Below are positions 9,225-28,516 of a stretch of 64,000 nt of DNA, piece after piece; positions within the stretch are counted from its first letter, which is position 1, and each line of letters starts with the position of its first letter. The position numbers were made by a program, and so were the translations under genes. The stretch lies in IMG/VR virus record IMGVR_UViG_3300031993_000041, positions 24,876 to 88,875 of that record; one strand, given 5' to 3'. A model generated the notes under the pieces. That model was not told the DNA's origin. It worked only from the letters and a program-made list of their open reading frames with translations, and searched no databases. The stretch comes from a virus. Taxonomy: Duplodnaviria > Caudoviricetes.

Positions 9225-9467
9225 CTATTTATAGTCGACTTCTTTCCAGAAATCCAAAGGACATTTTTCTTCCGGGAATAATATCTTAAGTCTTATGAAA
9301 CATCCGCATAAACCGCACCTTCTGAATATAAGTCCACGGCGTGACAGGCAAAAGTCGCACATGAGCATGCGTTTCTCCCTTACATATTTTGGTGTAATAA
9401 TACAACCGTTCTTAAATTCCTTGAGAACAGCTGACACAAAAGCTGATATTTTGCTATGCTTATTCAA
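9225..9467 (-). CDS. small Cys-rich (CxxC...CxxCxC...CP..W) putative Zn-binding protein
   Basis: CDFC, CGLCGC, KCPLDFW; overlaps start of the next gene. Confidence 0.65.
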   Translation of the reverse strand: MNKHSKISAFVSAVLKEFKNGCIITPKYVREKRMLMCDFCLSRRGLIFRRCGLCGCFIRLKILFPEEKCPLDFWKEVDYK

Positions 9468-12265: not shown

Positions 12266-14602
12266 ATGCTTATAGTCTTTCTTTCGTGTCTTTCAGAAGA
12301 CACCTATCAGAATATCAAAGAATTTAGGACAACGGCGGAACAGCTTGGTGCTGATTTCCTCCATATCAATTTATATAAGGATAAAGTCGAGGCAAAGGGA
12401 GATGACTTTATAGTCAACGGCAAAAAATATGATTTGTCCGAGGCGGTCGTACTTAAAAGAAAATGGGCAATGTCGAAATACGGCCTCGAAGAACCGAAGA
12501 AGAAACTTGCAAGCTTCAAGAAAATCTTCACGAAATACAAAGTTCCTATCATAAACACGGCGAAAGCAATCGAACTGTGCCGCTCAAAATGGATGACATA
12601 CAATGTACTTCTTGAAAATGGCGTGCAAACTATTCCTACAATAAAAGTAAATGCTGAAAATCTTGGTAGCATTCTTGAACGGACTATATTCCCATGTGTC
12701 GTTAAACCTGATGAAGGTACAAAGGGTAAGGATGTAATCTGCTTTAATTCTATGTTTGAGGCAATGTCTAAAATGCAGTCGTTGTTTCAGAAATACAAAT
12801 TCATGCTCCTTCAGCCGAAAATCGACATAGAAAGCGATATACGAATGCACGTAGTCTGTACAAAGGCGAAAAGAACATCAGACCCTGAAGATTATGAGGT
12901 AATAGGAGCGATGAAGAGAACTGCTCCAGACAACGACTTCAGAACGAATTTCAGTATTGGTGGTTCGATACAGTTATATGTGCCGACACCTGAAGAATCT
13001 CTTACGGCAATACAGGCTGCAATCGCGACAGGCTGCAGGTGGTGCGGCGTAGACTTGCTTTATGACAAGTCAGACAACAAAGTCAAAGTGATAGAGGTAA
13101 ACTCTTCACCTGGAATAACCGGCATAAACTCATTATATGCACCTGGGGAAAAGAACATCACATACAGGTTGCTCTCTGTGCTTTCTGGCTATTTCAGCAA
13201 AGACTATGAAATATCTGAAGGAAAGAAAACGATAGTATCGTTCCATGAGCATATAAAGCTTGACGGCATAGATATGATTGGTTGCTTTGATACAGGTAAA
13301 GAAGGAAATACTGCATCCCTTACCGTCGAGGACCTTAAAGACAACGGCGACACCGTTACTTTCAAGCTTCTCGGAAAAGAGATTACAAAAAAGAAAGACG
13401 GAACTGTCACTATCGGATATAAAGGTGCCCAGACAAAAATTAAGAGGATATGCGTCTGGATGAAAATCAGCATTAACGGCAAAGAAAAGAAAATACCTGT
13501 TACATTAAAGGAATTTAATTCGAAGACTGACAGAGAAAGTGTTAAGAAGCAACTGACGATAGGAACCGACATCATCCATGATTTTGGTTTCATCGTATCA
13601 CCAGACAGGAAAAAGACGTTCCTTCTCGGCGAATCTAAAGAGACTGACTGGAAACAAAGGGTATGCTTTCTTAGAAGCGAATGGCCTGACAACTTGAAGG
13701 ATATTACGATTTCAAGGCTTGTCCGCGACTTGTTCTATTTCCCGAATATAAAAGATGAATATGATAAAGGACTTACGAAAGACATGCCTTTAATCAATTA
13801 CATCAATGACGGTTCGAAAAATATAGAGTTCTATAAAAAGAAATACTCACAAATGAAGAACTTAAAAAATAATTTTGATGTTCTGTCTATATGTAATGAC
13901 AAGCTTGAATTCTATAAAAGCTTTATGTCATGCGGATTCATACCTGCAACATACGATGAAGAAACCATCAGAAAAGTTCCTTATGACCAGAAAATAATAA
14001 AGAAACCAGCAAGGGACACGCACTCCGGCATAGGCATAACTCTTACCGATAAGGGTGACATCATACGCAACGGCATGAACCCAGAATACATCTACTCGCA
14101 ATATATAGATGTGAAAGACGAATACAGGATACTGCTGTATAATAATGAAATTATGCTCTGCTACAGAAGAAGGCCTATGAATAAAGTCTCAAACAAGCTG
14201 CCTGAAGAACGCGTACGTTTCGTATACGAGCCAATCGAGCCTGATGCAGAATTTCTGAAAAAGATACATGAGATTTCTGATGTCATCTACAATAAGATAG
14301 ACTGCAACGGTTTGATAGGTCTTGACATTATGGTCGACGGCGACGGTAAAATGTGGTGCCCTGAAATAAACTCCAGAAGCGGTCTGTGCGCCATAGATTT
14401 CATCATACTGTATTTCTTTGTCTTGAAGCACGAGCTTGGTATCAACATATCAGATGATATGATGAGGTACTGCTATGACAACTACCTTCAAGATTTTACA
14501 AAAAACTACAGACAGAGGCTTCTTAAATATTTCGAGCCATCTGAAAATAATATCGACTTTACCGATTACGACAAATTCAAAAACTACTGCAACAAGCTGT
14601 AA
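12266..14602 (+). CDS. RimK-like ATP-grasp ligase fused to a retropepsin-like aspartic protease and a second ATP-grasp domain
   Basis: VVKPDEGTKGKDV, GVDLL...IEVNSSPG (ATP-grasp 1); CFDTG (protease); KKPARDTHSGIGI, GLDIM...EINSRSG (ATP-grasp 2). Confidence 0.85.
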   Translation: MLIVFLSCLSEDTYQNIKEFRTTAEQLGADFLHINLYKDKVEAKGDDFIVNGKKYDLSEAVVLKRKWAMSKYGLEEPKKKLASFKKIFTKYKVPIINTAKAIELCRSKWMTYNVLLENGVQTIPTIKVNAENLGSILERTIFPCVVKPDEGTKGKDVICFNSMFEAMSKMQSLFQKYKFMLLQPKIDIESDIRMHVVCTKAKRTSDPEDYEVIGAMKRTAPDNDFRTNFSIGGSIQLYVPTPEESLTAIQAAIATGCRWCGVDLLYDKSDNKVKVIEVNSSPGITGINSLYAPGEKNITYRLLSVLSGYFSKDYEISEGKKTIVSFHEHIKLDGIDMIGCFDTGKEGNTASLTVEDLKDNGDTVTFKLLGKEITKKKDGTVTIGYKGAQTKIKRICVWMKISINGKEKKIPVTLKEFNSKTDRESVKKQLTIGTDIIHDFGFIVSPDRKKTFLLGESKETDWKQRVCFLRSEWPDNLKDITISRLVRDLFYFPNIKDEYDKGLTKDMPLINYINDGSKNIEFYKKKYSQMKNLKNNFDVLSICNDKLEFYKSFMSCGFIPATYDEETIRKVPYDQKIIKKPARDTHSGIGITLTDKGDIIRNGMNPEYIYSQYIDVKDEYRILLYNNEIMLCYRRRPMNKVSNKLPEERVRFVYEPIEPDAEFLKKIHEISDVIYNKIDCNGLIGLDIMVDGDGKMWCPEINSRSGLCAIDFIILYFFVLKHELGINISDDMMRYCYDNYLQDFTKNYRQRLLKYFEPSENNIDFTDYDKFKNYCNKL

Positions 14603-22079: not shown

Positions 22080-22423
22080 ATTTTATTTTTATATTTATAC
22101 ATCTTAAAAAGAAACATCTGAAACAGAAACCGCCACCGAGAATAATAGAGATGTTTTTATTGGTTTCTTCATCCGACAGCTTGCCGTATTCATTCTCATA
22201 CCGACATAGCCAGTCGTCAGATGTTTCTTGCCGTGACAACCACCGGCTGTGGTATCGTCGCTCTAAATGGGACACGGATATATTTTCCCGAAAAGACACC
22301 GGCGATGGTGAAGTCGTTCGCAGTACTATACGACAGTAAATGCTGCCGGTTTATTTCAGGCATACGGTACGACTCAGACCTTAATGCCTTACACGCAGAT
22401 ATGTATCATTTCAACCTGCCTTG

Positions 22424-22496
22424 CTGTCGCTCAAGGTCTCGAACCTTGACATTCCTGGTCCAGAGCCAGGCGTGTTACCAATTACACCAAGCGACA
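22424..22496 (-). tRNA. tRNA-Gln(CTG)
   Basis: TGTCGCT/AGCGACA acceptor, CCTGG-CTCTGGA-CCAGG anticodon arm, TTCGAGA T-loop. Confidence 0.92.
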
Positions 22497-22515
22497 ATGA
22501 AAAGATTATATCTTA

Positions 22516-22572
22516 TTTCAATGCTCTCTTCAAAAATTCAGTCTTAAATATCCGCCTCACGGCAGGTGAACT
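22516..22572 (-). promoter_or_regulatory. boxB-like hairpin followed by boxA-like motif upstream of tRNA-Gln
   Basis: AGTTCACCTGCCGTGAGGCGGA then GAGAGCATTGAAA; related copies at 26571-26667 and 28037-28085. Confidence 0.55.
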
Positions 22573-22684
22573 TGGCTGAATGTTCTTTCAAGTAGAATTA
22601 TCTCAAGAATCAATCAAAAATCTTATATAAAAAACAACATTTTACAGAAAATCCTGTAAGAAATCCAAAATATTTTCATACTTG

Positions 22685-22758
22685 TGTGTCAGGCTGGATT
22701 CGAACCAGCGACTGCCGGCTCCACAAACCGGTGCTCTGCCAACTGAACTACTGACACC
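22685..22758 (-). tRNA. tRNA-His(GTG), encoded G-1, discriminator A
   Basis: G-GTGTCAG/CTGACAC-A, anticodon loop TTGTGGA. Confidence 0.9.
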
Positions 22759-22764
22759 ATGTAG

Positions 22765-22840
22765 TGGGCCCAGCTGGGCTTGAACCAGCGACCACTTGAT
22801 TATGAGTCAAGCGCTCTAACCTATACTGAGCTATAGGCCC
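22765..22840 (-). tRNA. tRNA with CAT anticodon, probably Ile2 (lysidine type)
   Basis: GGGCCTA/TGGGCCC acceptor typical of Ile tRNAs; CTTGA-CTCATAA-TCAAG. Confidence 0.85.
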
Positions 22841-22928
22841 GAATTGCCGTCGAAGGATTTTACATCTGACTACCGTCAGACACTGGGCTGAGCGACCTTT
22901 CCCATTGTACCCGGAATACAAGTCTGTG

Positions 22929-23014
22929 CGGAGAAAGCAGGACTTGAACCTGCACGCCTTACGGCTACTGGAGGTTTAGCAAACCTCTTCCTTACCAATT
23001 AGGATTATTTCTCC
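22929..23014 (-). tRNA. tRNA-Ser(GCT)
   Basis: GAGGT-TTGCTAA-ACCTC, long variable arm, G73. Confidence 0.92.
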
Positions 23015-23146
23015 ATGAAGATTTTATTAAACAATACCGCTTCACGTACGGCAGTTGCAGTTCTAATTAAGAACCCGACGGAATTCCGTGACGATGCGAA
23101 CATCCGAATTCTCTCAAAGCCTTTCGCACAGGCTGTTGAGGTATCG

Positions 23147-23220
23147 CGGGGGTGGGAGGATTCGAACCTACGGCCTAATGATTAACAGTCATTCGCTCTA
23201 ACCTGCTGAGCTACACCTCC
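23147..23220 (-). tRNA. tRNA-Asn(GTT)
   Basis: AATGA-CTGTTAA-TCATT; A3:C70 mismatch. Confidence 0.88.
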
Positions 23221-23235
23221 TTATATTTGTTTTTG

Positions 23236-23317
23236 TAGGATTGAAGAGAATCGAACTCTTACGCCTTGCGGTACCAGGTCCTTAGCCTGGCGCGTCTACC
23301 AGTTCCGCCACAATCCC
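23236..23317 (-). tRNA. tRNA-Leu(AAG)
   Basis: CCAGG-CTAAGGA-CCTGG, Leu-type D-loop and variable arm, A73. Confidence 0.9.
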
Positions 23318-23400
23318 ATGTAACGGCGCTTTTATTATTTTCTCATGCAGATTCGCCGAAATCTATAACTGCATTCAGCAAGGCGCTACCTTGTCATTCG

Positions 23401-23475
23401 TCGTGATAGATGGATTCGAACCACCGACCTTCTCGTTATCAGCGAGATGCTCTAAACCACCTGAGCTACATCACG
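23401..23475 (-). tRNA. tRNA-Ile(GAT)
   Basis: TCTCG-CTGATAA-CGAGA; CGTGATG/TATCACG acceptor. Confidence 0.92.
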
Positions 23476-23488
23476 GTATCCAATATAG

Positions 23489-23563
23489 TTGCGAGGATGG
23501 GACTTGAACCCATGACCTTCGGTTTATGAGACCGACGAGCACTCCATCTGCTACCACCTCGCT
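23489..23563 (-). tRNA. initiator-type tRNA-fMet(CAT)
   Basis: A1:A72 mismatch, GCTCGTCGG-T-CTCATAA-A-CCGAAGGTC closely follows bacterial fMet. Confidence 0.85.
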
Positions 23564-23750
23564 GTGAACTACCACAAACTAAAGATTTGCTGGCTTCTTG
23601 CTTCACAGCCGTTGCTTTGACTAATGTCAAAGTCTTACATCAGCTCCACAAGTGTACTCGACAGTCCCTGCCGAGGTTTTATACTCTTATTAACTGAGTT
23701 TACTTTTAGGTTTTACTTGTACAAGATTTATAGTACAAAACAATTACCAA
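23564..23750 (-). mobile_element. ORF-less IS200/IS605-like mini element (right end/omegaRNA-like sequence plus putative left-end hairpin)
   Basis: GGCAGGGACTGTCG..TGTGGAG..TGTAAGAC..GAAGCAAGAAGCC..CTTTAG..TGGTAGTTCAC resembles tnpB-associated right ends as I recall them. Confidence 0.65.
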
Positions 23751-24056
23751 TTTGTCAATGTACTTTTATTATTTATATATGAAAATATATTATTTTTCGA
23801 AAATACACGCAATTCTTCCAAGAAGCTAAATATTTTTGGTTTTCTCGCTAAAAATTATATAAAATGACAGGATTCTTTAGCAAGACCTGTCAGCTTGCCC
23901 GGCAAACGTTCCGGCTGCAATTTCTTACAGATTTTCGATTTCCTGCTACATACGCCTCACAGGAATTATTTCACCAACAGTTTCTATAAAATAAGATGTT
24001 CATTATGGCAAATTAAACATCTGTGTTACTCCCGGCGCCGGTTTTACACTCATACT

Positions 24057-24335
24057 TTACTTGATTTCATCAATATAAACTATGCAATCAAATACATCGT
24101 CAGGCATATCGTTAACAAGATTGTCAACTACCACACGGTATCCTTTCATATACATAATATCGCAGAAATCAGAAAGACTTCTGAAATAATACTTCCATTC
24201 GCCATGGCCATTGATACCTCCTGTTAGATGAACCTTCAGAGAACCGTTTTCAGCATTCGTTTCAGAAATGCTTAATTTCGAGCCAGCCTGTATACAGGCT
24301 ACTTCGATGTCACAATGTAATTTTTGTAAATCCAT
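24057..24335 (-). CDS. hypothetical protein within the tRNA array
   Basis: 92-aa ORF with A-rich leader. Confidence 0.65.
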   Translation of the reverse strand: MDLQKLHCDIEVACIQAGSKLSISETNAENGSLKVHLTGGINGHGEWKYYFRSLSDFCDIMYMKGYRVVVDNLVNDMPDDVFDCIVYIDEIK

Positions 24336-24477
24336 ATTAAAAAGTTTTAGTTAGCTTGAAAAATGAGCAGCAATCATCATAAACGACGTGCAAAAAGTTC
24401 AATCTGCTCCAGCGGCGACCTACAAACCAGATGCCTGAGAATATAGCCATCGCTGCTGTTACTTTTCTTTTTGACAA

Positions 24478-24550
24478 GTTGACTTCCTGGATTCGAACCA
24501 AGATAGCAGCCGTTTTAATAGCACTGTCTTAACCGTTAGACGAAAGTCAA
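24478..24550 (-). pseudogene. tRNA-like gene (Glu/Gln-type body) with unpaired anticodon arm
   Basis: perfect TTGACTT/AAGTCAA acceptor, GTCT/AGAC D-stem, TTCGAAT T-loop; anticodon arm GTGCTATTAAAACGGCT does not fold. Confidence 0.7.
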
Positions 24551-24641
24551 AAAACCAAAGAGCTACCTGCAAATAACCTTTGGAAAACCACTAATGACAT
24601 CAGTGAGCTTGCAGACTTTGATGGCATTTACCAAGTTTTTG

Positions 24642-24713
24642 TACCTCAGCCGGGAATTGGACCCGAATTACATGGTTGAAAACCATGTGTCCTAACCATT
24701 AGACGACAGAGGC
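24642..24713 (-). tRNA. tRNA-Glu(TTC)
   Basis: CATGG-TTTTCAA-CCATG; atypical T-loop TCCAATT. Confidence 0.85.
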
Positions 24714-24865
24714 AGAAAAAGTTCTTTAACTCATTTGCACATTTAACGGCTACTTTTAAGAACTTCCGGCCTGAAAGTAAGCTTTCAGGTCTCTTATAAG
24801 AAATTTTGCCTTACTCCAGTCACCACTTCCGGCCCGGGTGAAGGCCCCTGGAGAGTGTTTCGTTG

Positions 24866-24938
24866 TGGACACGGGGTGACTCGAACACCATCTTCCTGAG
24901 TGCAAATCAAGCGCATTAGCCAATTATGCTACCGGCCC
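24866..24938 (-). tRNA. tRNA-Ala(TGC), two acceptor-stem mismatches
   Basis: loop TTTGCAC, G3:U70 present. Confidence 0.75.
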
Positions 24939-24952
24939 AAATTAAATTTACT

Positions 24953-25181
24953 GCGTCAGCGGGATTCGTACCAAACATTGTGTGACTGCTCTTCCGGATT
25001 ATTCTCGCACTCCCACGTCCGGCAAATTGTGGGTTGTAGGTCAGCCATTCCCACATAACGCAATATTAGAAAAGAGTTTTTCGACCTCACTCTGCAGAGC
25101 CTGCACAGCTGCTACCCTGTTTCAACGGGGATTTTCAGCGGAATCCCTCACACTGGCGGCTTACAATCTATCATGCCGACG
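24953..25181 (-). ncRNA. putative ncRNA closed by tRNA-like acceptor stem and T-arm
   Basis: CGTCGGC/GCTGACG 7-bp stem; GG-TACGAAT-CC T-loop-like 3' end. Confidence 0.5.
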
Positions 25182-25296
25182 ATTTATGCTGTCTGTTTTA
25201 ATTCTGACAGCCAGAAGAATTCCCTTATGCGCAGGGATTTAGATGAGTTACCTTTTCTTTTGTAGGAGGAACCACCAAGAAATAAACCTACCTGGG

Positions 25297-25380
25297 TGAT
25301 GCTTGAAGGAATCGAACCTTTGTATTGGATGAACTTTAATCATTACAGAGGGTATTACCCTTAGACCATAGAAGTTCATC
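25297..25380 (-). pseudogene. degenerate tRNA-like element
   Basis: AAGG-TTCGATT-CCTT T-arm, AAGCATCA 3' end; internal 10-bp inverted repeat GGATGAACTT/AAGTTCATCC. Confidence 0.45.
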
Positions 25381-25549
25381 CAGCTTGCCCACTTTGCAAA
25401 AAGCATCAAAAAATCACCGTGCTATCCTTACACTTTATGCCGCTATCTTTTACTGCTCTATAGCAGTCGTGCTTTACTCATATTACGTAACTATGAACAC
25501 AGTTTCACGACCATTGCAGACTCGAACTGCACTTGTGACTTTATTTTTG

Positions 25550-25893
25550 TGGAGGTGCGGAGATTCGAACTCCGGTCCTGCAAACCGTCAATACAAGATA
25601 TTATTTACATGTTTAGGATAACAGATTAAGGTTCTGTTCCAAAACCTCTGCTCTCGCAGCTCCACCACCTGATTTAATCTAACCAGGAAATCTTAAAGGC
25701 TATTAAGCAGCCATTCTCATTGCTACTGGAGCGATGCGGATGTCTGCTACTCTGTTTGCGAAGTCTACAACCTTGTTGCTTACTTTGCTGAAAGTATTTT
25801 TTACCTTTATTTTCTGACCGTTGTTTTAGGTGAACCGTTCAATCACCACATGTACCTCATACCACTAATCTACAGTCAAAACCATACACCCCC
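25550..25893 (-). ncRNA. ssrA: tmRNA; predicted tag (A)VKNTFSKVSNKVVDFANRVADIRIAPVAMRMAA*
   Basis: GGGGGTG/CACCTCC-A with G3:U70, GGTTTTGAC 5' motif, GGAG-TTCGAAT-CTCC T-arm, ATAAAG resume context, tag ends AA-TAA-TAG. Confidence 0.93.
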
Positions 25894-25994
25894 AAAAAAG
25901 TTTGTGAAGCCCTACCACATAGCCAATTTAATAATGAGAATCGAACTCATGTTTCCCCATAGTTCCAAAATCCATAGAGAAATATGGAAATTGT

Positions 25995-26306
25995 TTATAA
26001 TTTAATAATTATCGGGTGAACTACAACACCCTCTATCCCATTGTTGAAAACCTTTGGGAATGCTTTTCTCATGATGTTATAACTTCCGTTCACGTCGGCG
26101 TTTATCTTGTTCCCATTTTCTGAAACAAACAAGCCACGACGAACACGCTTGCCTTTATAAACATCATGCTTTTTAATTTCTTCCAAATCAAGGAAACTGC
26201 ACTTGGATGTGTAGCTTTCCTCGTTTGTAATTACTTTTATCCCCACTTTTTCGCATTTGTATGAAATCATATCAACAAATCTACTGTGGGGTCTAAAGCT
26301 CACAAA
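25995..26306 (-). pseudogene. tnpB: C-terminal fragment of IS200/IS605 TnpB
   Basis: PHSRFVDMISYKCE..GI...EESYTSKCSFLD...NADVNGSYNI; RuvC-I/II and N-terminus absent. Confidence 0.85.
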
Positions 26307-26570
26307 CTTATTCTTAAAATTAAAAATCCTATACAGCCCTCGACAGTATTCGCCCTGTTGTAGCCACCCTTTGGTCTCAATACTCTTAGTATCACGCGAG
26401 TAGGTCGAGCGTAAAAGACACATCCTCACAGATTATTATTTTCAACCCTTCATCCTCGAATGCTTTGAAGGAAAAACCTGCTCCACCTCGGATTTTTATA
26501 ACATTTATCTCGTTGTTGTTAGTTTATGGACAAACTTTTCCATTTCCCTACAACATACTAAAAATTCCTT

Positions 26571-26667
26571 ATGTCAAAGAACTTATTTATAGTATCCGCA
26601 AAAATAGCAGAGATTCTATACGTCTTAAAAAATGGACCTTTAATGTCCGTCTCGCGACAGGTGAACT
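26571..26667 (-). promoter_or_regulatory. boxB-like hairpin plus boxA (AAGTTCTTTGACAT)
   Basis: AGTTCACCTGTCGCGAGACGGA at 26646-26667; boxA-like at 26571-26584. Confidence 0.55.
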
Positions 26668-26719
26668 CGGTCCAAGATGTTCTTTGGAAACAAAACCACA
26701 AAGTACATAATTATGAAAT

Positions 26720-27293
26720 CGTACCACACTATGTTACCATAGCCAGCAAAACGCGATAAAAGAATTACACTTGTATCATCCGCTAAAAGCAGACTTAGGT
26801 CCAGCCTATCGTGATTTATATGTCTGTTGTGGTCTGGAGCACACCATCACCATATCGAAATTCTTGCAAGTGAACATAATAAAACTTATTGTATCGTAGT
26901 TTAATGTGGGTCACGCGACCACTCCAAGCTCATTTTACTATGTTAATTTCAACTTAGGCAATCTGCAAGGGCTCGCCTTACAGACGTTCTGCTATTCAAT
27001 ATATTCGCAGAATGTCTTCCGTCTGCTCTCTACACCTTTATGAGCTACTTGACAAGTCAAGCTGGTATCTGTCATATTCCGATTTCGAGTGCTTCTCATG
27101 ATATGCCTATTTTATACACACTCTTCTCCATTAGACTACTTGCTCAATTTAGCTCGGTGTTATCTGCGACTTATTTGTTTGTCTTTACAGCGATTTTTCA
27201 TCTTTACAGGGCTTAGCACCTTGACAGACTTCCACCGAATTTGGAAGATTCTACTCCGGCGTTTCCACCGGAGCACACAATAAATCTATTTCA
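26720..27293 (-). ncRNA. group I intron-like ribozyme without ORF (boundaries predicted)
   Basis: P3 TCTTCC/GGAAGA, P4 TTCGGTG/CACCGAG, P7 GAGAGCA/TGCTCC, P9.0 ACCACA/TGTGGT and terminal G. Confidence 0.75.
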
Positions 27294-27310
27294 ATGTACT
27301 CTTCATTTTG

Positions 27311-27449
27311 AGCGTACTTGAGGATTCGAACCTTCTGATACAAGTTAGTCGACGTCTCATGTATCATTGAATAGTTAAGCTGCCCACAACATATATCAGA
27401 AATTTCGAAGGTACTTCTGTAAATTTCATCAACCTATTCCAGCATACGC
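27311..27449 (-). ncRNA. putative tRNA-mimic-capped ncRNA
   Basis: GCGTAT/GTACGC stem, AGG-TTCGAAT-CCT, internal TTCTGATA/TATCAGAA helix. Confidence 0.5.
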
Positions 27450-27458
27450 ATAATATAG

Positions 27459-27586
27459 TGCCTACCCAGGGATTCGAACCACCGTTCCATTGCTTTTATG
27501 TACAATATTAAACAATAGAACCTTCAAAGCCTTCACGTAAATAAACTTAAGCGCGCCTCATTTTATTTGCGTGAGAAGGAGTAGAC
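27459..27586 (-). ncRNA. putative tRNA-mimic-capped ncRNA
   Basis: GTCTACT/GGTAGGC-A 7-bp stem, GG-TTCGAAT-CC T-loop. Confidence 0.5.
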
Positions 27587-27612
27587 ATAATTTCAATGTA
27601 CTCTTAATTTAG

Positions 27613-27774
27613 AAACATAATGAGGAGTCGAACCTCTACCTCCGTCTAATACATCTGGGAAGATTTGCAACTCTTCGCAGAATCCATAGACCTCAGTATC
27701 ACCCTACCCGTATCTTAGCACTGCCTTCCTCGAATACCGCGAATCTCTTCAGGCGAGCCACACTTACATACGTC
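27613..27774 (-). ncRNA. putative tRNA-mimic-capped ncRNA
   Basis: GAGG-TTCGACT-CCTC T-arm; GACGTA/TATGTT weak acceptor stem. Confidence 0.45.
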
Positions 27775-27830
27775 GTGAATTATGCCGTGGGATAAATCAT
27801 TACATCAGAGCCTTGCAAAACGTCTTATTG

Positions 27831-28007
27831 TCAAAACGTATGGAGTCGAACCATATTCTTCCATGTCCTTTCATATCGTGGTCCTTCTATATTGGATGAC
27901 GGTCCGTACTAAAAAGTTTTGCAATCACTTTGTTTCCAGAAGCCGGAAGAAATTCGCGAATCTTCATTTCACGATACGGGATGTTCTGCCAGTTAAACTA
28001 CAATTAT
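27831..28007 (-). ncRNA. tRNA-like gene with ~100-nt insertion in the anticodon arm
   Basis: TA-GTTT-AACTGGC-AGAAC D-arm, TATGG-TTCGACT-CCATA T-arm, insert closed by CGTATCGTG/CACGATATG. Confidence 0.55.
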
Positions 28008-28036
28008 CGTCAGACAACCCTGACATAATGATTATA

Positions 28037-28110
28037 TTTCAATGTACTTAAAATCTTTAATTATCTGTCTCACGACAAATGTACTTTATTTTTCGTATAT
28101 AAAAAACAAC
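28037..28110 (-). promoter_or_regulatory. RNA-island leader: promoter motif, boxB-like hairpin, boxA-like motif
   Basis: GTTGTTTTTTATATA (28096-28110), TGTCGTGAGACA hairpin, AAGTACATTGAAA. Confidence 0.6.
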
Positions 28111-28123
28111 GTTTCTACAGAAA

Positions 28124-28516
28124 TTATTTATTTTTTTCATTTTTTTCTTCCTGCAACGGTATTCCGCCGTTTATGGTGTCTGTACCTGTTGAAGTATATA
28201 TGACTCCCCTTAGCGGACAATTTAAGCAATCCTTAAACGGATTCGTGCAGTCGGTCCAATCCTTACAGTTCTTTGGAAACGTTCTAATCGAAGGATAATC
28301 AATTAGAGGCGGTTTGTCGTCTACGACTATTTTCCTAAACTCGGTTTTTGCTATTTCCGAATCTTCGAAATCCTTCGTGGTATATTCGATTCTGTCTCGG
28401 TCATCGCATTTCATAATAAATTCGAGGACGTCTTCAGGATTATTAAAGCAGTCAAGATATTCTTTCTTCTTGCTTTCATCCTTTTCAAAAACTCTGTAAA
28501 CAATATAAATCTTCAT
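28124..28516 (-). CDS. hypothetical protein with CxxC-type Cys cluster
   Basis: 130-aa ORF, CKDWTDCTNPFKDCLNCP. Confidence 0.7.
   Translation of the reverse strand: MKIYIVYRVFEKDESKKKEYLDCFNNPEDVLEFIMKCDDRDRIEYTTKDFEDSEIAKTEFRKIVVDDKPPLIDYPSIRTFPKNCKDWTDCTNPFKDCLNCPLRGVIYTSTGTDTINGGIPLQEEKNEKNK

Follow-up and report, generated by a model that had tools for sequence, protein, structure and literature searches.

A TnpB-Less Transposon Right End with an OmegaRNA Scaffold Abuts a tRNA(CAU) Gene in an Uncultured Jumbo Phage

The RNA Island

The DNA analyzed here, a stretch of 64,000 nucleotides that we refer to as the window, corresponds to bases 24876-88875 of an 88,875-base IMG/VR virus record whose completeness was estimated at 32% by CheckV. 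Its minus strand carries, from about 22400 to 28100, an RNA island in which ARAGORN and Rfam identified a tmRNA (25549..25893, minus strand) as well as 11 tRNA calls. A tRNA with the anticodon CAU (tRNA-Met(CAT), 23488-23563, minus strand; called by ARAGORN and scored at 34.7 bits as an Rfam tRNA) heads a run of eight tRNAs, Met-Ile-Leu-Asn-Ser-Met-His-Gln; upstream of it, the same strand carries other tRNAs and the tmRNA. We found no close relatives of the neighboring proteins, and the tRNA arrays of related contigs are not syntenic with that of the window.

Farther along the same strand, window 26430-28124 is a 1.7-kb stretch with stops in every frame and several T-arm-like sequences, and a search of window 24900-28200 at E ≤ 1 returned no Rfam family, group I introns included. 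The tRNA at 24478-24550 (minus strand) is odd in having a two-base "anticodon" call. tRNAs with CTA and TCA anticodons occur in related contigs (L103 931-1002 and L006 3618-3690) and, taken together with the odd tRNA, these hint that stop codons may be suppressed or recoded in this group of phages.

The Right End Upstream of tRNA(CAU)

The segment immediately upstream of tRNA(CAU), window 23686-23564 on the minus strand, was confirmed by BLAST, alignments and a covariance model to be the ORF-less right end of an ISDra2-like IS605-family element, that is, the omegaRNA scaffold of a TnpB element of the kind we term type B. In BLAST, window 23674-23564 matched G002:92312-92418 with 79% identity (E 1.6e-20). 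At this place in G002 a tnpB gene ends (L008 1506..2702, minus strand), which is intact and encodes 398 aa; its product has the Pfam domains HTH_OrfB_IS605, OrfB_IS605 and Cas12f1-like TNB and can be aligned from end to end with ISDra2 TnpB structures (E 4e-87). The homologous segment is ~117-123 nt long. Compared with the 3′ ends of the intact 398-aa tnpB genes that related jumbo-phage contigs carry, it shows about 79-85% identity, its closest relatives being the intact copies in G002-G004 (84-85% identity), and the old tnpB frame can still be read in it as ..AGTVEYT.GADVRL, followed by a stop. The covariance model, which was built from 23 other right ends with the window left out, had one match only in the 64-kb window, at 23686-23564 (89.6 bits, E 2.5e-15), and this match extended over 123/123 positions.

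The preliminary description of this locus had proposed an ORF-less IS200/IS605 omegaRNA-like right end, and both the homology to tnpB 3′ ends and the covariance model bear this out. All of the motifs it quoted are present on the minus strand, in the order it gave, and run straight into the tRNA. Two of its measurements have to be corrected: the quoted sequence does not start at 23700, which is wrong by 28 nt, as its GGCAGGG starts at 23672, and the span of 137 nt assigned to the element exceeds the ~117-123 nt for which there is homology. Could the segment nevertheless be an ordinary tRNA leader that resembles transposon ends by chance? Its position alone would favor such an explanation, but we find it hardly conceivable in view of the covariance-model E value, the identity to tnpB 3′ ends and the remnants of the coding frame. 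In addition, no similar leader was found upstream of the tRNAs in the relatives we examined; right-end similarity together with the lack of a conserved ordinary leader is the outcome that favors the preliminary description. At E ≤ 10, no known RNA family in Rfam matched the leader.

How precisely can the boundary with the tRNA be placed? The last bases of the right end, GGTAGTTCAC, finish at 23564, and ARAGORN has the tRNA begin at 23563. We retrieved 79 loci of the type B TnpB family for comparison, 25 of which align with the window, and many of these alignments stop at 23564 ± 1, while the BLAST alignments of the window to tnpB 3′ ends terminate at 23563-23565. In all copies similarity stops after GGTAGTTCAC/T (..GTTCAC). 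Since the flanks beyond this point are unrelated in every copy, the right end stops exactly one base before tRNA +1, and on this point the preliminary description was precise. At the opposite edge, alignments found no tnpB homology upstream of 23686, and the bases 23687..23699 (minus strand) form a junction without homology to either tnpB or the module that lies upstream of it. A likeness between the start of the flank in L060-L065 (AGCAAGGT) and that of the window (AGCGAGGT) was dismissed as chance, there being no tRNA in L060-L065.

Structure of the Scaffold

The consensus structure of the 23 right ends comprises 30 pairs, and compensatory changes are seen at 20 of these. Paired cells amounted to 96%, vs. 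27-46% when the partners were slid by 1-3 columns, and the observed covariation was not equaled in any of 500 shuffles. By consensus structure and covariation, stem 1 is located at 23675-23657, a middle hairpin at ~23632-23614 and a terminal hairpin with a TCTTTAG loop starts at GAAGCC (23597-23592), all on the minus strand. It is likely that the GGA loop of stem 1 pairs with UUC at 23568-23566 (positions -5..-3) as a pseudoknot. The window retains stem 1 with its GGA loop, the UUC at -5..-3, the long-range stems and both the middle and the terminal hairpins. Despite a divergence of ~20% from the nearest copy, only one of the 30 modeled pairs is non-canonical in the window scaffold (a 1-nt bulge).

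In ISDra2 the ordered and sufficient scaffold consists of 116 nt with four stems, the guide lies directly beyond it, a pseudoknot joins -5..-3 with a loop near -104, and the 5′ region from -231 to -117 is dispensable (PMC10097598). Judged by its sequence, then, the surviving piece in the window is a complete minimal omegaRNA scaffold and nothing more.

The Upstream Module and the Target-Adjacent Motif

Beyond the junction, and outside the transposon end, lies a conserved module (23700..23789, minus strand) with 86% identity to G001:13111-13197. It comprises the motif AGTACATTGACA (23764-23753), an AT-rich tract, a palindromic hairpin (23738-23716, formed by TTGTAC, 23738-23733, and GTACAA, 23721-23716) and the segment GTAAAACCTAAAAGTAA (23716-23700), all on the minus strand. 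The pairing of the hairpin is kept in G001 (L007 ~1553-1572) through two double changes, TTGCATAA/TTATGCAA, and this points to a structure under selection or to a site at which a dimeric protein binds. Thus, the hairpin noted in the preliminary description is present, but it belongs to a separate module that is also found in G001 rather than to the element. In G001 the next recognizable remnant, 58 nt downstream of the module, is a different TnpB right end, which we call type A. This arrangement in G001 had made us consider the module as a candidate promoter of the omegaRNA. We rejected it in this role, as a hairpin and a T-rich tract intervene in G001, and a sigma-70-like match within the module was not above chance.

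A TTGAC pentamer upstream of the scaffold had been put forward as a possible target-adjacent motif (TAM). It sits in TTGACA (23758-23753) and is part of a motif, AGTACATTGAMA, that is repeated in the island, with four copies on the RNA-island (minus) strand at 23764, 27300, 27602 and 28048; the left-end flanks of the family carry other sequences, and the proposal therefore does not hold. In all independent insertions of the family whose left end can be recognized, the bases directly outside it (..GAGCGTAAAACCC, a hairpin, GGATGTAAGCGAC) are TTTAT or TTTAC, from which we infer that the family TAM is TTTAT/TTTAC, one base from the TTGAT of ISDra2. Two of the AGTACATTGAMA copies lie ~20 nt after tRNA-like T-arms, and no consistent -10 box is found downstream of the motif, which may be a phage-polymerase promoter, a signal for processing or something else.

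Missing Parts of the Element

The preliminary description raised the possibility of intact tnpB or tnpA genes elsewhere in the genome, and neither a type B TnpB nor a Y1 TnpA (PF01797) was found in the 88.9-kb record, which is 32% complete. A profile built from 23 left ends had no match in the window at E ≤ 10, and the window has neither a left-end hairpin nor a TTTAY junction. The right end itself is present in a single copy in the record, as determined by short-word BLAST. Without a left-end hairpin, a TAM junction and a TnpA the segment would be unable to transpose, and without a TnpB in cis it would be unable to act alone. Four of the five related contigs searched (G002-G005) have one intact type B TnpB each, with catalytic-type motifs. 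By sequence comparison, the segment is from the lineage of these intact copies in the four jumbo-phage contigs. None of these intact copies is near a tRNA, and the site in the window that is syntenic to the G002 copy is unoccupied.

Miniature ORF-less derivatives of IS200/IS605 elements that keep both ends are known as PATEs. Does the window contain such an element, moved by a TnpA in trans? Mini-elements with a left end bearing TTTAT and a right end do exist in this family (L233, L134, L208 and L223), the scaffold of L233 begins with AAAACCTCG, as does that of the window, and GTAAAACC at 23716-23709 in the window matches the left-end box of the family. Nevertheless, we consider a PATE-like origin of the present segment highly improbable: the left-end profile, as noted, finds nothing, so that we take GTAAAACC to be either a coincidence or an unprovable vestige, and the segment is a single copy in a record with no detectable TnpA. 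It shares with PATEs the transposon family and the lack of ORFs, and it differs from them in keeping the right end only.

The tRNA at the Guide Position

Because the right end finishes against tRNA +1, the formal guide of the scaffold is the 5′ end of the tRNA, AGCGAGGTGGTAGCAG..., whose first 16-20 nt sit at the position of an omegaRNA guide. The preliminary description had named the initiator tRNA as the guide. The guide position is indeed the 5′ end of tRNA(CAU), but the features of an initiator are only partly present, and initiator identity is no more than possible. Position 1:72 is an A × A mismatch (the canonical initiator mismatch is C1 × A72). Of the three consecutive G:C pairs expected in the anticodon stem of an initiator (29:41, 30:40, 31:39) two are present, followed by U31:A39. 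The D-arm, where an initiator would have A11:U24, is irregular: its stem is weak, with only 2-3 pairs, and can be paired in more than one register. The Rfam tRNA score of 34.7 bits is also low.

Is the scaffold a working standalone omegaRNA? In this reading a cognate TnpB, supplied by the unassembled part of the genome or by a co-infecting relative, would bind the uncut precursor RNA. We regard this as unlikely. The retained piece does correspond to the 116-nt scaffold that is sufficient experimentally, with stems 1-4 and the pseudoknot partners; trans-working standalone omegaRNAs are documented, as far as PMC10691335 describes them; intact type B TnpB genes with catalytic-type motifs are present in the related contigs, as described above; the record covers only about a third of the genome; and other TnpB-less copies also keep the whole scaffold. 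These points have to be set against the absence of a type B TnpB from the 88.9 kb, the empty site at the position syntenic to the G002 copy, the single copy of the element, and an RNase P cut at +1 that would remove the guide. Equally unlikely, in our estimation, is the consequence that would follow for other phages, namely that with the first 16-20 nt of the tRNA as guide, empty sites consisting of TTTAY directly joined to the tRNA would be cut and repair would copy the scaffold in. The resident copy would be immune because it is GTTCAC, not the TAM, that precedes the target. The 1.56 Mb that we searched held no TTTAY-flanked target, and an empty-site allele was encountered in neither the viral nor the metagenome scans. 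The 5′ end of the tRNA had no exact match in viral contigs, and in metagenome contigs there were only chance coding matches and one distant phage tRNA (L117/L120); the latter is similar, has U1-A72 and has no TnpB end upstream.

Taken one step further, the fusion of scaffold and tRNA might be a functional unit, in which a TnpB acting in trans would cut the unoccupied TTTAY-tRNA junctions of rival phages and the scaffold would spread by homing. We consider this distinctly improbable. If it were true, the cut made by RNase P where scaffold and tRNA meet would decide how much of the RNA is armed with a guide and how much is disarmed by the loss of it, and the fusion would tie tRNA processing naturally to an RNA-guided nuclease. 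Even the simpler standalone reading, if correct, would make the tRNA +1 junction a test case for RNase P processing versus omegaRNA biogenesis, and would allow a test of whether TnpB-less scaffolds hitch-hike on an in-trans TnpB in phage-phage competition.

Protection offers another route by which the insert could have been of use to its host. TnpB cuts only vacant sites in which the TAM and the target adjoin (10.1101/2023.03.14.532601), and it follows from this restriction that an insert which parts the ancestral TAM from the tRNA could confer immunity as an occupied site; alternatively, guide-less scaffolds set free by RNase P could soak up TnpB. A complete scaffold that stops exactly at the RNase P site is compatible with such roles, but occupied-site immunity needs no intact scaffold and no anti-TnpB decoy was found in the literature searched. 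We therefore assign these protective roles only a slim chance, and the decoy and "hiding parasite" functions that were suggested for the scaffold at the outset are conjecture.

TnpB-Less Right Ends in Other Phages

TnpB-less right ends are known and common in phages; what is unusual here is the position against a tRNA. Scanning viral contigs with a right-end pattern yielded 123 matches, 95 of which could be assessed, the contig continuing for 1300 nt or more upstream of them. A full TnpB accompanies 46 of these matches and a partial one accompanies three, leaving 46 with none, although ~5 of the last group look like chance matches in coding DNA. By this count, TnpB-less ISDra2-like right ends turn up about as often as intact elements among the matches in viral contigs that could be assessed, which affects both the annotation of phage non-coding regions and the view of TnpB guide repertoires. 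At least seven TnpB-less copies have the whole scaffold. The types encountered are mini-elements with a left and a right end, scaffold-only copies (L229, L147), copies reduced to the terminal hairpin, and copies behind a LAGLIDADG-type gene (L165, L189). Breakpoints at the 5′ side of these other TnpB-less copies cluster between -117 and -160. We considered, and rejected, the idea that the family targets tRNAs, since none of the 123 matches abuts one, and only a single match has a tRNA within 200 nt of its right end, 87 nt away.

The mini-elements (L233, on the minus strand, L134, L208 and L223) are ORF-less and ~230-250 nt long. They start with TTTAT and a left-end hairpin, continue with a short promoter-like tract, ..TTGTATATTTG.., and close with the scaffold and the right end; from their sequences they are likely to be mobilizable standalone omegaRNA units in phages. 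L165 (1955-2929, minus strand) and L189 (4075-5064, minus strand) each have a ~325-aa ORF with the LAGLIDADG-like motifs LYADGY and YFDGDGW and a Cys/His-rich tail, which stops just upstream of a full-length TnpB-less omegaRNA scaffold, and it looks as if a homing endonuclease gene had replaced most of tnpB. L189 has a second TnpB-less scaffold (9354-9466) in a similar C-terminal context.

A Second TnpB Relic in the Island

The island contains another TnpB remnant, of type A and unrelated to type B, at 25959..26292 (minus strand), 2.3 kb upstream of the type B scaffold. It consists of the last ~100 tnpB codons and the right end and lies within a 144-aa ORF (26429-25995) that represents only the C-terminal TNB/RuvC-III part; Pfam recognizes the Cas12f1-like TNB domain with 49 bits, and the remnant shares 90-94% identity with the full-length tnpB genes of L004 and L005 at their 3′ ends. 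Its right end finishes with ..TTTTGGAACTAT at 25959, 65 nt upstream of the tmRNA. The flank of this right end reads GGGGAAAC, followed by a T-arm-like ATGAGTTCGATTCTCAT, and is weakly tmRNA-like to Rfam (13.8 bits).

Type A right ends without a TnpB occur twice in G001; they measure 108-113 nt, and their 5′ breakpoints are nearly the same. One (L006 4004-4116) lies 19 nt upstream of a tRNA-Met in an array of 24 tRNAs, and the other (L007 ~1655-1765; G001 13256-13363) lies downstream of the module that in the window precedes the type B scaffold. The presence of a second TnpB relic nearby, and of more in G001, fits an island that accumulates decayed insertions.

A Probable Relic Carried as a tRNA Leader

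What, then, is the most reasonable account of the segment? We think it probable that it is an insertion relic, carried as a tRNA leader in a non-coding RNA island where it is tolerated. Originally, an element that was either full or miniature would have been inserted with its right end touching base 1 of the tRNA(CAU) gene, and a later deletion would have taken everything except the last ~117-123 nt, with the loss of the left end, the promoter and tnpB. Since the scaffold shares its strand with the tRNAs and the tmRNA, its transcript probably forms the 5′ leader of a tRNA precursor, in which case RNase P would cut after the last base of the scaffold to leave a guide-less scaffold and a normal tRNA. 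Any activity would need a cognate TnpB acting in trans on precursor RNA that RNase P had not cut. A segment that would be unable to transpose or to act alone, and whose guide RNase P would cut off, has, by default, the status of a tolerated relic.

Some observations do not sit easily with simple decay. The endpoint of the deletion is within ~10 nt of the functional 5′ edge of the scaffold, which would be rare for a random break in a 1.3-kb element, and a breakpoint near the scaffold edge, seen likewise in other TnpB-less copies, hints at either selection for an intact scaffold or a mechanistic bias. Also at odds with a relic are the near-complete preservation of the modeled pairs and the exact abutment on tRNA +1, which is without parallel among the other right-end matches. 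It is the pattern of breakpoints, set against plain decay, that keeps a trans-acting or protective role alive.

Set beside known systems, the segment is best regarded as another case of the standalone or orphan omegaRNA, a relic in a good state of preservation whose position is unusual and suggestive as to mechanism. The omegaRNA (reRNA) of ISDra2 from Deinococcus radiodurans (PDB 8H1J, 8EXA) likewise has a ~116-nt four-stem scaffold with a pseudoknot and a guide right after its end, whereas the window lacks tnpB, tnpA and a left end, its guide position is held by a tRNA gene, its carrier is an uncultured jumbo phage and its TAM is predicted to be the TTTAT/TTTAC of the family. The standalone omegaRNAs of Altae-Tran et al. 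(2021), as far as PMC10691335 sets them out, are multi-copy and evidently mobilized, with a compatible effector in the same genome. The scaffold in the window resembles them in being complete without an adjacent effector or transposase, and it departs from them in being a single copy with no left end and no effector in 88.9 kb.

It is a general phenomenon that homing endonucleases and introns leave decayed relics in the tRNA regions of phages. Like these, the window harbors the remnant of a selfish element tolerated in an RNA island, with the second TnpB relic adjoining the tmRNA; unlike these, the remnant is an RNA-guide scaffold whose guide position is set by the neighboring gene. For annotation, the consequence is that what would pass for a 120-nt "tRNA leader" of a jumbo phage is a recognizable TnpB guide-RNA scaffold.

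Two of the related phage contigs have peculiarities of their own. The type A tnpB of G001 (L004 2267-4297) is fused to an N-terminal extension of ~277 aa, giving a 676-aa ORF, and the corresponding gene of G002 encodes 399 aa. In the type B element of G002 the right-end GTTCAC (L008 1501-1506), read on the other strand, supplies the TGA stop of a convergent 104-aa gene, and thus the guide of the G002 element would be the 3′ end of that gene.
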